This document shows positions 6,718 through 18,770 of a DNA stretch of 40,492 nt, one piece after another. The stretch covers positions 1-40,492 of IMG/VR virus record IMGVR_UViG_2541047891_000004. One strand, written 5' to 3'. Made by a program: the position numbers and the translations under genes. This DNA is from a virus. Lineage: Duplodnaviria > Heunggongvirae > Uroviricota > Caudoviricetes. The notes under the pieces are model-generated. The model had not been told where the DNA came from. It searched no databases and saw only the letters and a list, made by a program, of their open reading frames with translations. The number at the start of each line of letters is the position of its first letter. Within the stretch, counting starts at the first letter, position 1.

Positions 6718-7206
6718 ATGTTGGATGTATTTACTCCATTGTTGAAACTTTTTGCTAACGAGCTACTCGAAAGACTTATGTATACGATTATCATTTTTGG
6801 TCTCACTCTCTGGCTGATACCGAAAGAGTTTACTGTCGAATTCAATGCTTATACTGAAATACCTTGGCTCTTTCAGATTATCGTTTTTGCCTTTTCTTTC
6901 GTGGTCGCCATTTCCTTCTCAAGATTGCGAGCACATATTCAAAAGCATTATTCATTACTACCAGAGCAACGAGTATTGCTTCGTTTATCTGAGAAAGAAA
7001 TCGCTGTATTTAAAGATTTCCTTAAAACAGGAAATCTTATTATCACTTCTCCTTGCCGTAACCCGGTTATGAAAAAATTAGAACGGAAGGGCATCATTCA
7101 ACATCAGAGTGATAGCGCAAACTGTTCTTATTATCTCGTCACCGAAAAATACTCCCATTTTATGAAGTTATTCTGGAACAGCAGGAGTAGACGTTTTAAT
7201 CGTTAG
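6718..7206 (+). CDS. sieB: Superinfection exclusion protein SieB (162 aa)
   Basis: Membrane protein MLDVFTPLLKLFANELLERL...; lone rightward gene in the leftward early region, as in lambda. Confidence 0.8.
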   Translation: MLDVFTPLLKLFANELLERLMYTIIIFGLTLWLIPKEFTVEFNAYTEIPWLFQIIVFAFSFVVAISFSRLRAHIQKHYSLLPEQRVLLRLSEKEIAVFKDFLKTGNLIITSPCRNPVMKKLERKGIIQHQSDSANCSYYLVTEKYSHFMKLFWNSRSRRFNR

Positions 7207-7358
7207 CTTACTGTGTGCTTCTCCAACCATCGGCGCGCACCAGTTTCGGTTTTAAATGTTTTGCTTTTGGTATACGTCATAGCAGTGAACGTTCCATCTT
7301 GGTTGGGGAACACGCCGCACACTAGGGATTCGTTATTGCCGAGGTCGATTTTTTGCAT
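7203..7358 (-). CDS. ydaF: Small protein YdaF-like (51 aa)
   Basis: Hand-translated MQKIDLGNNESLVCGVFPNQDGTFTAMTYTKSKTFKTETGARRWLEKHTVS. Confidence 0.6.
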   Translation of the reverse strand: MQKIDLGNNESLVCGVFPNQDGTFTAMTYTKSKTFKTETGARRWLEKHTVS

Positions 7359-7368
7359 TTTTCGCACC

Positions 7369-7503
7369 TCACATTTTGTTGTTGCGGATAGAGGCTTCTG
7401 CCTGCCAGAGATCCCAGTCGTTGCTGCGTAGAGCCTGTACAGCCTGGCTGTAAGTGATATCGCAACAATCCATCAAATACTGAACTACTTCGTAATGCAC
7501 CAT
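7369..7503 (-). CDS. ydaG: Small protein YdaG-like (44 aa)
   Basis: Hand-translated MVHYEVVQYLMDCCDITYSQAVQALRSNDWDLWQAEASIRNNKM; first gene downstream of the putative pL. Confidence 0.6.
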   Translation of the reverse strand: MVHYEVVQYLMDCCDITYSQAVQALRSNDWDLWQAEASIRNNKM

Positions 7504-7672
7504 CTTATCTCTCCCCTTAACGCCGGGTGGCGGAACTAACTGCTGCACTGCAAAATTTGAATCCCGCCGTCATGTTCATACGCCTCGGGCTGGCTACTTA
7601 ACCCCTTACCACTGCCTGGTAACTCGAAGTATTGCCCTGCGTTCTGTGGGGCGGGGTGGGTGGTATGCTGGA

Positions 7673-7737
7673 ACTATAGGTAATGCCTAATTGATTGTCA
7701 ATAGGCTATGCCTAATGTTTTGGGCGTAACCTAATAG
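7673..7737 (-). promoter_or_regulatory. OL-like operator cluster with putative pL promoter
   Basis: Minus strand reads TTGACA (7701..7696), 17-nt spacer, TATAGT (7678..7673); overlapping palindromes TAGGCTATGCCTA and CCTAATAGG. Confidence 0.6.
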
Positions 7738-7810
7738 GTGATGGCGACAGGAGAAAGTGATGGGGGGTTAAATAACGGAATCCAAGAGTTTTCCGTCAGA
7801 CCATATAAGT

Positions 7811-8287
7811 TTAAGTTCCAGTTTTTGTGATGTTCTGGCTTTTCCGTTCAGATTCTAGAGCTTTCAGATACTTACCCACTTTCATTTCCATCGCTGCTAT
7901 GTAGGCGCGAACATCGTGGTCAACCCAATCTGGTTCTGTAGTATTTCCAGATAACAGGAAAGCTACAATCGCTCTTATTTCATCAGAGGCTGCTTGATAA
8001 AGGTTGTTTATATCTAAAAGTTCACTTTTTGTATCTGAATTGGTGGGGGTTGGTATGGGGTATTCGTTAAGCCCCCAATGCTCTGGACCAACAACATCAG
8101 AAAAGAAACGCCATAATTCTGGAAGTTTATCTTTACTTATGGAGCCTTTCTTAATCCAGTCATAAATTGATGGTGGTTGGACTTTGAAGTGGCGTGCGAC
8201 CTCCGCCTTTGATTTGACGGATCCCGATGCGATTTTTTTGTTAATGGCCTGCTCTATCGCTCGGCCTAAGTCTTTACCACTAAGCAT
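7811..8287 (-). CDS. racR: Prophage repressor RacR (CI-like, 158 aa)
   Basis: 158-aa ORF recognised as RacR; divergent from cro-like ydaS with operators between and beyond. Confidence 0.85.
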   Translation of the reverse strand: MLSGKDLGRAIEQAINKKIASGSVKSKAEVARHFKVQPPSIYDWIKKGSISKDKLPELWRFFSDVVGPEHWGLNEYPIPTPTNSDTKSELLDINNLYQAASDEIRAIVAFLLSGNTTEPDWVDHDVRAYIAAMEMKVGKYLKALESERKSQNITKTGT

Positions 8288-8310
8288 TGCTTAATATTCT
8301 CCTATGCTCA

Positions 8311-8384
8311 TTGCATTAGGCAATCCCTACCCTTATCGCATTAGGCATAGCCTATTGACATTTATGTTAGGCGTCGCCTAATAT
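8311..8384 (+). promoter_or_regulatory. OR-like operator cluster with putative pR (and divergent repressor-maintenance promoter)
   Basis: TTGACA 8355..8360, 18-nt spacer, TAATAT 8379..8384; perfect palindrome TTAGGCGTCGCCTAA 8367..8381; 8339..8360 is the exact reverse complement of 7696..7717. Confidence 0.65.
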
Positions 8385-8410
8385 TTCTGTGTGTTTTTGG
8401 AGTTCATTCG

Positions 8411-8707
8411 ATGAAAAAAGAGAACTATTCATTCAAGCAAGCTTGTGCTGTTGTCGGTGGGCAATCAGCAATGGCTAGGCTTTTAGGTGTATCACCTCCA
8501 AGCGTAAATCAATGGATCAAAGGGGTACGTCAATTGCCTGCCGAGAGATGTCCAGCAATTGAACGTGCAACAAGAGGTGAGATTCTGTGCGAAGAGCTTC
8601 GTCCTGATATTGACTGGTCATATTTACGACGTTCGGCATGTTGTTCGCAGAATATGTCAGTGAAGCAACTAAATGACAGTAACAAATCCTCATTTGATCA
8701 TACCTGA
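8411..8707 (+). CDS. ydaS: Cro-like HTH regulator YdaS (98 aa)
   Basis: HTH region QSAMARLLGVSPPSVNQWIKG; first rightward gene after the operator region. Confidence 0.85.
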   Translation: MKKENYSFKQACAVVGGQSAMARLLGVSPPSVNQWIKGVRQLPAERCPAIERATRGEILCEELRPDIDWSYLRRSACCSQNMSVKQLNDSNKSSFDHT

Positions 8708-8729
8708 AACATCAAGAGGCAAATGATTC

Positions 8730-9152
8730 ATGAAAATCAAGCATGAGCACATCGAATCAGTGTTGTTTGCCCTGGCAGCAGAAAAAGGGCAGGCATGGGT
8801 AGCCAATGCAATTACTGAAGAATATCTGCGCCAGGGGGGCGGCGAATTGCCCCTGGTTCCAGGCAAGGACTGGAACAATCAGCAGAATATCTATCACCGT
8901 TGGTTGAAAGGTGAAACGAAAACGCAAAGAGAAAAAATTCAGAAGCTGATCCCAGCAATTCTGGCAATCCTTCCGCGCGAGCTGCGTCACCGACTCTGCA
9001 TCTTCGATACCCTGGAACGCCGTGCATTACTGGCGGCGCAGGAAGCGTTAAGTACGGCAATTGATGCGCATGATGATGCAGTCCAAGCCGTTTACCGGAA
9101 AGCGCATTTCAGCGGCGGCGGGTCTTCCGACGATTCTGTCATTGTTCATTAA
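8730..9152 (+). CDS. ydaT: YdaT-like protein (CII-position regulator/toxin, 140 aa)
   Basis: 140-aa ORF recognised as Rac YdaT. Confidence 0.8.
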   Translation: MKIKHEHIESVLFALAAEKGQAWVANAITEEYLRQGGGELPLVPGKDWNNQQNIYHRWLKGETKTQREKIQKLIPAILAILPRELRHRLCIFDTLERRALLAAQEALSTAIDAHDDAVQAVYRKAHFSGGGSSDDSVIVH

Positions 9153-15967: not shown

Positions 15968-16072
15968 TTTTATATTTAATTTATTTGTGAATTTGAGTCT
16001 TGTTTCAAGATAGATTAAAAAATGATTTCTGGCTAAAGGGAAATTAAGTAAAATTGCTGCGGGTGCTTGAGG

Positions 16073-16108
16073 CTATCTGCCTCGGGCATGAACACCAACG
16101 GCAGATAG
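16073..16108 (+). repeat. Perfect 9-bp inverted repeat (CTATCTGCC/GGCAGATAG) with 18-nt loop upstream of hok
   Basis: Read directly from sequence; lies in the predicted hok mRNA leader. Confidence 0.6.
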
Positions 16109-16207
16109 ATAAAAGCCCCACCCGACTATAAATCGAAGTGAGGCCCCTATATGCTCGTCACATATAGATTGCCTCTTACGGACCGAAAGGTCAAGGAGAA
16201 GCAGGCT

Positions 16208-16363
16208 ATGAAGCAGCAAAAGGCGATGTTAATCGCCCTGATCGTCATCTGTTTAACCGTCATAGTGACGGCACTGGTAACGAGGAAAGACCTCTGCGAG
16301 GTGCGAATCCGAACCGGCCAGACGGAGGTCGCTGTCTTCACAGCTTACGAACCTGAGGAGTAA
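16208..16363 (+). CDS. hok: Hok/Gef-family type I toxin (51 aa)
   Basis: MKQQKAMLIALIVICLTVIVTALVTRKDLCEVRIRTGQTEVAVFTAYEPEE recognised as Hok family; in-frame upstream extension from 16151 occupies the mok-like leader. Confidence 0.85.
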   Translation: MKQQKAMLIALIVICLTVIVTALVTRKDLCEVRIRTGQTEVAVFTAYEPEE

Positions 16364-18616: not shown

Positions 18617-18692
<76 letters not shown>

Positions 18693-18695
18693 TAT

Positions 18696-18770
<75 letters not shown>

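Follow-up and report, generated by a model that had tools for sequence, protein, structure and literature searches.

Among the cryptic prophages of E. coli K-12, Rac has been studied best; it encodes an essential repressor, and once repression is lost the cell dies or the prophage is excised. We analyzed a viral sequence of 40,492 nucleotides (IMG/VR record IMGVR_UViG_2541047891_000004, the whole of which is here called the window), a lambdoid E. coli prophage of the Rac type in which the repressor gene racR is flanked by two clusters of palindromes. The locus raises the question of whether both clusters serve as operators of RacR, and whether the left one, like the right one, is combined with an early promoter. 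A first-pass annotation had read the region from 7673 to 8384 as a lambda-like OL/pL and OR/pR switch, using gene names that agree with strain 190 (99.9% identical) and K-12, in both of which racR, ydaS and ydaT are annotated. Our analysis makes it highly likely that the two clusters represent the OL and OR operators of RacR, the repressor of Rac, and that an early promoter is integrated into each.

Inverted repeat and operator motif around racR

The two 22-mers annotated as reverse complements, 7696-7717 (TGTCAATAGGCTATGCCTAATG) and 8339-8360, were found to be 100% complementary, with 621 nt between the arms. This was the sole inverted repeat of at least 18 nt (seed 14, within 3 kb) in the whole 40.5-kb window, while by our own arithmetic an exact 22-nt inverted match has a chance expectation of about 5e-5 in 40 kb. 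The left arm consists of the pL -35, the operator OL2 and 3 flanking nt, and the right arm of 3 flanking nt, the operator OR2 and the pR -35. The K-12 right arm matches the inverted repeat at 21/22 positions, because the spacer of OR2 in K-12 is ACA.

A motif scan for TAGGC-N3-GCCTA, the palindrome reported in both clusters, returned five matches with at most one mismatch (7677, 7702, 8317, 8342, 8368), all of them within the two clusters; shuffled sequences contained a mean of 0.57, and 0/100 shuffles reached the five seen in the window. Allowing two mismatches added sites at 7721 and 8281, a level at which 11 sites were found versus about 16 in shuffles, so that single matches are not significant and clustering alone counts. 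The longer palindrome TTAGGCG-T-CGCCTAA, also reported, is located at 8367-8381 and belongs to the same operator type, its spacer happening to lengthen the palindrome. Both annotated promoters were recovered as well: TTGACA-N17-TATAGT on the minus strand at 7701..7673 (11/12 consensus matches) and TTGACA-N18-TAATAT on the plus strand at 8355..8384 (10/12), which were the two best promoter matches between 7300 and 8800 in a consensus scan. The description of the clusters as mirror images applies to a core of about 45 bp (operator, -35, operator, -10) and does not extend beyond it, since the right cluster has extra sites at 8317 and 8281, while the left site at 7721 is weak and not conserved.

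The right cluster

The right cluster (OR/pR, with pR equal to PydaS) has already been established experimentally for K-12, where it is the published RacR/PydaS locus. In the window, racR (7811..8287, minus strand; repressor of 158 aa) and the Cro-like ydaS (8411..8707, plus strand; Pfam YdaS_toxin 4.7e-31, P22_Cro 1.8e-9) are separated by 123 bp and share four sites of the TAGGC-N3-GCCTA type. The hexamers and all operator half-sites of this cluster are identical to those of K-12, with differences in spacers only. The motif also agrees with the published RacR consensus, (T/A)TAGGC-n3-GCCTA(T/A) (PMC9638921; also PMC5700373), and RacR formed three complexes in gel shifts and repressed a GFP reporter (PMC5700373).

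Two of the four sites lie on pR. OR2 (TAGGCATAGCCTA, 0 mismatches, 8342..8354; motif scan and PMC9638921) adjoins the -35 (TTGACA, 8355..8360, plus strand), while OR1 (TAGGCGTCGCCTA, 0 mismatches, 8368..8380) lies across the pR spacer and runs 2 nt into the -10 (TAATAT, 8379..8384, plus strand). The same two hexamers were assigned to PydaS in K-12, with the start mapped by primer extension, and a CCCGGG substitution of the -10 abolishes the promoter (PMC9638921). In DNase I footprints the OR1/pR region was protected first, at the lowest RacR concentration (PMC9638921).

The remaining two sites are associated with the maintenance promoter of racR, PracR3, whose -10 (GAGAAT, 8296..8301, minus strand) we matched to the hexamer mutated in PMC9638921. 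OR3 (TAGGCAATCCCTA, one mismatch, 8317..8329) lies over the PracR3 -35 region and is the ortholog of an operator that bears a -35 in relatives (TTAGGCAATTCCTATTGAC). The fourth site (TAAGCATTGCTTA, two mismatches, 8281..8293) covers the racR ATG, hence the start of the leaderless racR mRNA, and corresponds to the published 'O3'; it was footprinted, and the PracR3 transcript was found to be leaderless (PMC9638921). An ATG-centred operator was observed in nearly all relatives. Downstream of ydaS, ydaT (8730..9152, plus strand; Pfam YdaT_toxin 1.8e-11) encodes a functional analogue of CII (PMC11879457, PMC9986795), and the YdaT box over its ATG (ATGATTCATGAAAATCAA, 8723..8740) is identical to the footprinted site in PMC11879457.

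The left cluster and its conservation

The left cluster repeats the pR arrangement on the minus strand. OL2 (TAGGCTATGCCTA, 0 mismatches, 7702..7714) adjoins the pL -35 (TTGACA, 7696..7701), which is near-invariant across the family, and OL1 (TAGGTAATGCCTA, one mismatch, 7677..7689) lies across the pL spacer, reaching 2 nt into the -10 (TATAGT, 7673..7678). From the hexamer positions, transcription is predicted to start at the A at 7666 (minus strand), 7 nt past the -10, which by alignment corresponds to about 1,419,619 in K-12 MG1655. A putative third operator, OL3 (TGGGCGTAACCTA, two mismatches, 7721..7733), is doubtful and a half-site at best.

A scan of IMG/VR with the family alignment returned 80 loci, almost all of them E. 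coli Rac (91-100% identity), a set usable for polymorphism and not for diversity. Among 78 E. coli Rac loci, common polymorphism was observed in 0/81 half-site or hexamer columns compared with 23/119 other columns (Fisher p = 4e-6, both clusters pooled); the left cluster alone gave 0/30 versus 6/48 columns (p = 0.08). None of OL2, the pL -35, OL1 and the pL -10 contained a common polymorphism, and the -10 showed one singleton variant. The N3 spacer of the operators varied freely in these loci, while the half-sites did not.

Diversity was assessed with 27 non-redundant diverged loci (211 kb) from Gamma- and Betaproteobacteria that encode proteins with the RacR N-terminal domain. These contained 94 sites with at most one mismatch, 58 of them at OR, 32 forming 16 pairs downstream of the repressor gene, and 4 elsewhere, whereas shuffles of the same loci gave 7.6 sites and no pairs. 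The arrangement "operator|TTGACA-N5/6-operator|TAATAT", with its sites spaced 24-26 bp, was thus present 3' of the repressor gene in 16/27 loci, and no downstream pair was found in the other 11/27 within the sequence examined. In every downstream pair, TTGACA separates the two sites, and the distal one overlaps a -10 resembling TAATAT. The OL1 position was kept in 17 diverged pL regions, and the OL2-to-OL1 distance, 25 bp in the window, was 24-26 bp in 17/17 family members. Relatives carry TAATAT or TAnnAT at the position of the pL -10, and information content in their left regions was restricted to half-sites and hexamers. The same design was seen in two isolated phages, in Klebsiella phage KpF5 by a scan that located OR sites and an OL pair, and in vB_EcoS-683R6 by its repressor gene and leftward gene order.

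The third left site fared differently: E. coli loci carry high-frequency polymorphisms in one half of 7721-7733, and the site is missing in relatives, where this position is without information content. Judged by this pattern, OL is a pair of sites and not a triplet.

Leftward transcription and the pL reading

The predicted pL transcript would begin with a leader some 160 nt long (7504..7665, minus strand), rich in C at its 5' end and followed by ydaG (7369..7503) and ydaF (DUF1391, 7203..7358), the first and second genes of the leftward operon, both on the minus strand. The leader is common to Qin-type (DicA) prophages. It showed no unusual folding (z = -0.42) and no Rfam match at E <= 1 or at gathering scores; no N gene or nut site (boxA/boxB-like element) was recognised on reading it, which does not prove absence, and the ydaG and ydaF products are not arginine-rich.

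Published transcriptomes connect this operon to RacR. RNA-seq showed ydaF, ydaG, ydaE and racC rising about 40-fold and kilR more than 70-fold as racR mRNA drops (PMC6765115), and CRISPRi against racR derepressed ydaG, kilR, recET, xisR and intR (bioRxiv 10.64898/2026.09.06.749655). The K-12 literature thus shows that a drop in RacR releases the left as well as the right arm from repression. We found no further RacR-type site (at most one mismatch) elsewhere in the prophage, including near xisR and intR, and read-through from pL is therefore the simplest explanation for the RacR dependence of these two genes.

The Qin prophage offers a direct comparison. It shares the layout, with DicA/DicC and with dicBp and dicCp as PL and PR analogues, the former described as such in PMC10448788, and DicA, like RacR, is a short repressor that cannot be cleaved (PMC3121763, PMC10448788). 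The leader of its left-promoter transcript is homologous to that of Rac (80-90% identity), the homology running from the predicted pL start onward, so that the Qin-type dicBp-ydfA leader begins to match at 7666. Upstream of that leader, Qin-type prophages have an operator/promoter of different specificity. Qin differs in its repressor and in its operators (GTAC-type repeats), and its immunity specificity therefore differs from that of Rac.

Four independent lines, namely conservation within E. coli, conservation across relatives, equivalence with dicBp and the published transcriptomes, argue strongly for a left half (OL/pL) of the switch as predicted from the DNA. The lambda-like switch of the first-pass annotation is established in its right half by K-12 experiments (PMC9638921, PMC5700373) and supported in its left half by sequence conservation, the position of dicBp and the transcriptomes; a third left operator is doubtful. 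We infer that RacR binds at OL, that pL starts near 7666 and that repression of pL would occur by occlusion.

The closest competitor, which we regard as improbable, is that the left cluster binds RacR and contains no working promoter, acting as an auxiliary looping site for OR or as a roadblock to racR read-through into ydaG/kilR. The octameric state of RacR (PMC11014345) would suit such a site, as would the location of racR and the left operon on one strand, where read-through from the racR promoter is limited by Rho (PMC4150792), and pL is known as a predicted start and not a mapped one. Against this, the pL hexamers match at 11/12 positions and are conserved as strongly as the operators across the 17 diverged loci, and the equivalent position in Qin is a known promoter, dicBp (PMC10448788). 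The rise of ydaG/ydaF while racR mRNA falls (PMC6765115) is likewise something that read-through cannot explain.

The remaining two alternatives have next to no probability. In one, the 22-nt repeats bound a DNA segment with racR that can move or invert (a site-specific inversion switch or a transposon relic), which would fit a single gene flanked by perfect inverted repeats; Rac prophages also carry an invertase gene, pinR. The junction that inversion would create, constructed and searched against 5426 complete E. coli genomes, was absent (no match covering at least 80% of the query). The clusters of relatives are moreover 0.6-3.6 kb apart with different intervening genes, and what is conserved is half-sites and promoter hexamers, not recombinase-type ends. 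In the other, the palindromes act as RNA hairpins (intrinsic terminators or processing sites) and not as protein-binding sites, as might be suggested by a consensus scan that flagged plus-strand terminator-like elements at 7702-7714 and 8364-8384, but the stems are of 5 bp with 3-nt loops (-2.4 to -9.1 kcal/mol) and no T-run on the racR strand, neither plus-strand hairpin lies 3' of a plus-strand gene (sieB ends at 7206, and 8364-8384 is upstream of the pR start), the half-sites are held fixed around a freely varying N3, and the right-hand copies are under RacR footprints (PMC9638921).

RacR and its relation to other repressors

On the reading of the clusters as OL and OR sets, the immunity region of lambda is a close model. 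The two share a repressor gene between two operator clusters, each overlapping an outward-firing early promoter, and tandem palindromic operators about 25 bp apart; in lambda the operator centres are separated by 24 and 23 bp within OR, and by 24 and 20 bp within OL. They also share the placement of the strongest sites on the lytic promoters and weaker ones on the repressor's own promoter, a leaderless repressor mRNA, and Cro-like and CII-like genes after pR. Rac differs in its operators (13-bp TAGGC-N3-GCCTA versus 17 bp in lambda), in an OR of four sites, one of them over the ATG, with two good sites at OL, and in an OL-OR distance of 640 bp compared with about 2.4 kb. No N/nut system was recognised in Rac, and YdaS, unlike Cro, reportedly does not repress racR (PMC9638921).

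The repressors form octamers in both systems, RacR by size-exclusion chromatography (PMC11014345). RacR has no Pfam match to Peptidase_S24, the domain of RecA-stimulated self-cleavage, and its C-terminal half is all-helical in the AlphaFold model; lacking the S24 domain, RacR is not a lambda CI homologue in this half. A putative N-terminal helix-turn-helix was matched in Pfam by HTH_17 alone, below the cut-off (18.7 vs 27 bits). The model contains five N-terminal helices, and its top Foldseek matches in the PDB were nearly all Xre/CI/Cro/HipB/C-protein HTH domains, including the lambda cI NTD, which is supportive of such a domain but at weak scores (E 0.46 or worse). No solved structure of a RacR relative was found by sequence at E <= 1.

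CP-933P (PaaR2/YdaS/YdaT; OR1-3, OL1-3, PL933P; PMC8630535) resembles Rac in its YdaS/YdaT-type right-arm genes and octameric repressor, and differs in the repressor itself (PaaR2), in operators made of GTTTAGTAA repeats and in a toxin-antitoxin pair between the repressor gene and PL. Betaproteobacterial prophage repressors of CI/LexA type (HTH + Peptidase_S24) resemble RacR in the DNA-binding domain, where identity over residues 1-75 is 42-75%; they also have its operator consensus, and their OR and OL/pL are arranged in the same geometry. They differ in having a C-terminal S24 autocleavage domain, and are therefore presumably SOS-inducible, where RacR has a helical oligomerisation domain instead.

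Discussion

The arrangement as a whole is an ordinary lambda-like switch, and in our model a RacR dimer would recognise the 13-bp palindrome TAGGC-N3-GCCTA in both clusters. From pR, transcription proceeds rightward into ydaS and ydaT, and from pL it would proceed leftward into ydaG, ydaF, kilR and recET and on to xis/int. At each promoter one operator abuts the -35 TTGACA, and the second, 25-26 bp away, occupies the spacer and reaches 2 nt into the -10; with operators so placed, two bound RacR dimers would exclude RNA polymerase from either promoter. The best sites, namely OR1, OR2 and OL2 without a mismatch and OL1 with one, would be expected to fill first and shut both lytic promoters. The weaker sites, OR3 with its one mismatch and the operator at the racR ATG with its two, would follow as RacR levels rise, and would reduce the activity of the leaderless racR promoter.

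One RacR octamer may further bridge OL1-OL2 and OR1-OR2 over a 640-bp loop. The fuller proposal combines a compact lambda-style loop enclosing racR, pL as the single RacR-controlled source of the left arm (ydaG, kilR, recET, xis/int) and a portable CI-type module, and we advance it tentatively, as possible and a little short of probable. The DNA-binding domain and the operator/promoter cassette would in that case be an old module common to Gamma- and Betaproteobacteria, in which an SOS-cleavable S24 domain and the non-cleavable domain of RacR may have replaced one another as the C-terminal half.

Published K-12 studies of RacR covered the region upstream of racR only, assigned the octamer to its four sites and called the RacR regulon, including the ydaFG operon, uncharacterised. 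We found no description of the Rac OL/pL, or of an sbcA or kil promoter, in the searchable literature, and earlier mention in older papers is possible. By analogy, the left set appears to be the expected lambda-style partner of the published right set; it will be unsurprising to phage biologists, completing a picture predicted by analogy with lambda, Qin and CP-933P.

A conserved second operator pair on a strong leftward promoter would explain why ydaG, ydaF, kilR, recET and xis/int are induced together when RacR falls, and pL as the sole source of the left arm would, if true, explain how excision genes 7 kb away respond to RacR without a local operator. The left pair would also give the octamer an alternative role in OL-OR looping, and the coordinates of the left cluster are the exact places for testing both the leftward promoter and the looping ideas.

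Locus identity and gene content

The locus belongs to a Rac-type lambdoid prophage of Escherichia coli, of which it forms the immunity region. Positions 7400-8800 matched E. coli strain 190 with 99.9% identity and K-12-like genomes with about 98%, and in both the annotated gene names at the locus are racR, ydaS and ydaT. Open reading frames were observed for racR (7811-8287, minus strand, 158 aa), ydaS (8411-8707, plus strand, Pfam YdaS_toxin and P22_Cro), ydaT (8730-9152, plus strand, Pfam YdaT_toxin), ydaG (7369-7503, minus strand) and ydaF (7203-7358, minus strand). Elsewhere in the prophage Rfam matched two tRNA genes (18617-18767), the RalA antitoxin sRNA (1557-1735) and, at 16061-16210, a sok antitoxin RNA whose neighbour in strain 190 is hokD.

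Operator and promoter motifs flanking racR

The first-pass annotation had proposed mirrored operator and promoter clusters on either side of racR (7673-8384), and every element it described was found where it had been placed. Direct comparison confirmed that 8339-8360 is the exact reverse complement of the 22-mer at 7696-7717; nowhere else in the 40.5-kb window did an inverted repeat with arms within 3 kb of each other reach 18 nt. Scanning for the 13-bp TAGGC-N3-GCCTA palindrome with at most one mismatch gave five matches (7677, 7702, 8317, 8342 and 8368), all inside the two clusters; shuffled sequences averaged 0.57 matches and 0 of 100 reached five. Two-mismatch sites were observed at 7721 and 8281 (the latter over the racR ATG), a stringency at which a lone match is not significant and clustering alone counts. 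Both proposed promoters were recovered in a promoter scan: on the minus strand TTGACA-N17-TATAGT at 7701..7673, which matches the consensus at 11 of 12 positions, and on the plus strand TTGACA-N18-TAATAT at 8355..8384, which matches it at 10 of 12.

The leftward promoter (pL) and the rightward promoter (pR) share a design in which one operator abuts the -35 hexamer, with GCCTA followed directly by TTGACA (OL2, 7702-7714, and OR2, 8342-8354, both with no mismatches). The second operator, 25 bp away on the left and 26 bp on the right, occupies the promoter spacer and shares its final two bases with the -10 hexamer (OL1, 7677-7689, one mismatch; OR1, 8368-8380, no mismatches). The mirror-image description held for the core of about 45 bp but not for the whole clusters, since the right side has two extra sites. 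These are OR3 (8317-8329, one mismatch), over the -35 region of a leaderless racR promoter with the -10 GAGAAT (8301..8296, minus strand), and TAAGCATTGCTTA (8281-8293, two mismatches), centred on the racR ATG. When K-12 was aligned to the window the hexamers and every half-site were identical and the spacers alone differed, the K-12 OR2 spacer (ACA) reducing the inverted repeat match to 21/22.

Two other features were observed near the left cluster. An imperfect 19-nt inverted repeat (7595-7613 and 7756-7774, 79% complementary) encloses the entire OL/pL cluster and may be a chance match; both arms would be present together only in a racR read-through transcript. A G homopolymer (C on the racR strand) at 7762-7767, between the racR stop codon and OL, differs in length (6-8 bases) between Rac loci of E. 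coli.

What was found on the right side, lambda analogy included, is already known for K-12, where published work includes that of Krishnamurthi et al. A single ydaS start was reported by Wons et al. 2022, with the -35 TTGACA and a -10 (TAATAT) whose substitution abolished the promoter, together with three mapped racR starts, the leaderless PracR3 being the strongest (PMC9638921). In their footprints the lowest RacR concentration sufficed to protect the ydaST promoter and more RacR was needed to protect the racR promoter region, and a consensus of (T/A)TAGGC-n3-GCCTA(T/A) was derived, with one operator over the ATG (PMC9638921). Our ranking by mismatches (OR1, OR2, OL2 and OL1 best) predicts that RacR closes the lytic promoters before it represses its own gene, and this ranking agrees with the published order of protection. 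Wons et al. 2023 observed RacR octamers by gel filtration, ascribed them to four upstream inverted repeats, and described the RacR regulon, with the ydaFG operon as part of it, as uncharacterised (PMC11014345). Operators or a promoter downstream of racR were not described in our full-text literature search, the scope of which stopped short of older subscription-journal papers.

Conservation of both clusters among RacR relatives

The N-terminal 73 residues of RacR were nearly invariant among homologues, and a family scan with one genome per species gave 29 loci from Enterobacterales and many Betaproteobacteria. We found 94 sites with at most one mismatch in the 27 non-redundant loci (211 kb). 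Fifty-eight occupied the fixed positions 0, -35 and -60 in the 100 bp preceding the repressor ATG, while 32 formed 16 pairs with 24-26 bp spacing downstream of the repressor gene and four were elsewhere; shuffles of these loci gave 7.6 sites and zero pairs. Every downstream pair, read in the direction of repressor transcription, consists of TTAGGCnnnGCCTA joined to TTGACA, N5/6, and TTAGGCnnnGCC joined to TAATAT, with information content only in the half-sites and the two hexamers and with unconserved flanks. Both the OR sites and the downstream pair were present in an isolated phage, Klebsiella phage KpF5, and in Escherichia phage vB_EcoS-683R6 the repressor is 98% identical and the leftward genes come in the same order.

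Between the repressor stop codon and the pair lay 68 bp to 2.7 kb, and this gap was occupied by unrelated cargo genes, a position comparable to that of rexAB in lambda. Loci with 0.7-2.7 kb of cargo before the OL pair were L014, L017, L021, L022, L027, L029, L030 and L032, with examples including an ankyrin-repeat protein, a DUF5131 protein with a partner gene, a staphylococcal-nuclease homologue and an LprI-domain protein; in KpF5 the cargo encodes an HSDR_N-domain protein. Some of these may be defence genes. Two retrieved loci came from metagenome-assembled genomes with other labels: a 5.2-kb contig binned as Candidatus Nanosynbacter (L004) shared 99% identity with E. coli Rac, which is probably explained by contamination or a binning error, and a scaffold labelled Alistipes senegalensis (L015) carried a RacR-like N-terminal domain.

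The relatives have three upstream operators and Rac has four. In the relatives the middle upstream site TTAGGCAATTCCTATTGAC bears the pR -35; OR3 of Rac is this surviving middle site without the -35 (TTGAC), and an additional operator plus TTGACA, identical to OL2 and its -35, lies between OR3 and OR1. The Rac unit bearing the pR -35 resembles a copy of OL2 and its -35 that was inserted here, with OR3 as what is left of the ancestral operator that bore the -35. The exact 22-mer repeat arises from this extra unit, and its identity is explained by functional constraint and common descent, as operator and -35 bases make up 19 of the 22 positions.

The operator over the racR ATG (8281-8293) fixes codons 1-3. 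Its half-site GCTTA, in place of GCCTA, permits Leu at RacR position 2 (ATG CTT A), and the repressor N-terminus MLSGK/MLNGK is nearly invariant throughout the family. The other half in Rac has also drifted, to TAAGC, leaving a perfect but weak palindrome. A foreign regulator, C.Csp231I, has been reported to act at this site (PMC9638921).

Comparison of RacR with CI-type repressors

No S24 domain was found in RacR by Pfam search, which returned only a sub-threshold HTH_17 match. In the AlphaFold model (mean pLDDT 81) a disordered linker connects five N-terminal helices to a helical C-terminal domain, and the top Foldseek matches were nearly all Xre/CI/Cro/HipB/C-protein HTH structures, including the lambda cI N-terminal domain, although none was significant (best E = 0.46). 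A RacR-type N-terminal domain joined to Peptidase_S24 was observed in 11 of the 12 scanned homologues of greater length, which came almost entirely from Betaproteobacteria, and the same fusion was found in some Pectobacterium and other homologues (the domain of RacR residues 1-75 with Peptidase_S24 in loci L012, L014, L018-L023, L025, L027 and L030 and proteins P0103, P0105, P0114 and P0118). Many of these S24-type loci keep the OR and OL/pL cassette with the same operators, which indicates that the C-terminal domain was swapped on a fixed operator-recognition module. The best description of RacR is a CI-type DNA-binding module whose C-terminal domain has been exchanged; on DNA it works like lambda CI, but it does not belong to the autocleaving CI/LexA family.

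Evidence for a leftward promoter

Beyond the pairs conserved among relatives, OL/pL is supported by constraint within E. coli, by published transcriptomes, by the lack of other RacR-type sites and by its equivalence in position to a known promoter. Common polymorphisms (minor allele in at least three loci) were examined in 78 E. coli Rac loci. They were observed in 0 of 81 half-site and hexamer columns versus 23 of 119 other regulatory-region columns (Fisher p = 4e-6, both clusters pooled), and for the left cluster alone in 0 of 30 versus 6 of 48 (p = 0.08). In these loci OL2, the pL -35, OL1 and the pL -10 had rare variants only (singletons and doubletons), and one half of a putative third left site (7721-7733) was highly polymorphic.

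Published expression data also bear on the left arm. When C.Csp231I lowers racR expression racR is the sole Rac gene to fall, and in the same transcriptome ydaF, ydaG, ydaE and racC increase about 40-fold and kilR >70-fold (PMC6765115), while racR CRISPRi derepresses ydaG, kilR, ydaE, racC, recE, recT, ralR, xisR and intR (bioRxiv 10.64898/2026.09.06.749655). Read-through from a weakened racR promoter cannot explain a rise of the left arm with falling racR, whereas a RacR-repressed promoter between racR and ydaG can. A 100-fold RacR dependence has been reported for xisR and intR though "far away from RacR" (PMC11014345). As no further sites with at most one mismatch were found in the window or in the 25-kb strain 190 locus including xisR and intR, and all left-arm genes except sieB are on the pL strand, this dependence is best explained by pL transcription. 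The small RNA KilS, annotated in K-12 on the pL strand downstream of sieB (106-203 of the K-12 stretch L115; K-12 1,418,405-1,418,502), falls inside the predicted pL transcription unit.

In over 2000 E. coli genomes the match to this locus was confined to 7512-7667 (minus strand), a leader of roughly 155 nt between the predicted pL start and ydaG, with 80-90% identity. Most of these carry a different repressor, of the Qin/DicA type, and in them the leader belongs to ydfA. The two examples examined are Qin-type prophages, in which the shared stretch is flanked by ydfA, ydfB and dicB and, at its opposite end, by a different HTH repressor, a cro-like gene and ydaT. The homology starts at CATACCA, the predicted pL start, which places the immunity-module boundary exactly at pL +1; upstream of it the Qin-type locus has its own promoter-like element and GTAC-type repeats. 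There dicBp, a recognised PL analogue repressed by DicA (PMC10448788), occupies the position equivalent to the predicted Rac pL, with the shared leader downstream. The leader had no Rfam match and its fold was not unusual (z = -0.42); its C-rich 5' end (CCACCCACCCCGCCCCACAG) suggests that it may be a Rho-loading site.

Discussion

Terminator hairpins were rejected as an explanation of the clusters, the stems being weak and T-runs lacking, as was an invertible or mobile segment, the inverted junction being absent from 5426 genomes. The conserved hexamers, the published transcriptomes and the dicBp equivalence count against a reading in which pL is inactive and OL, with RacR bound, serves only as a roadblock or in looping. 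We consider it highly probable that the clusters are OL/pL and OR/pR. The pR promoter, RacR binding at OR (pR first, the racR promoter later), its octamers and derepression of both arms are taken from the literature (PMC9638921, PMC11014345, PMC6765115), to which the present analysis adds the anatomy, statistics and conservation of both clusters.

RacR would bind OL1 and OL2 and so occlude pL, whose transcript is predicted to start near 7666. We suggest only tentatively, at somewhat short of even chances, that one RacR octamer holds OL and OR together in a loop of 640 bp and that pL is the only promoter under RacR control from which the left arm is transcribed. The observed feature is real and its right side has already been published. 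The lambda-like interpretation of the first-pass annotation was judged correct, with its left half supported here, and that left half is an unreported yet expected case of the standard lambdoid layout.
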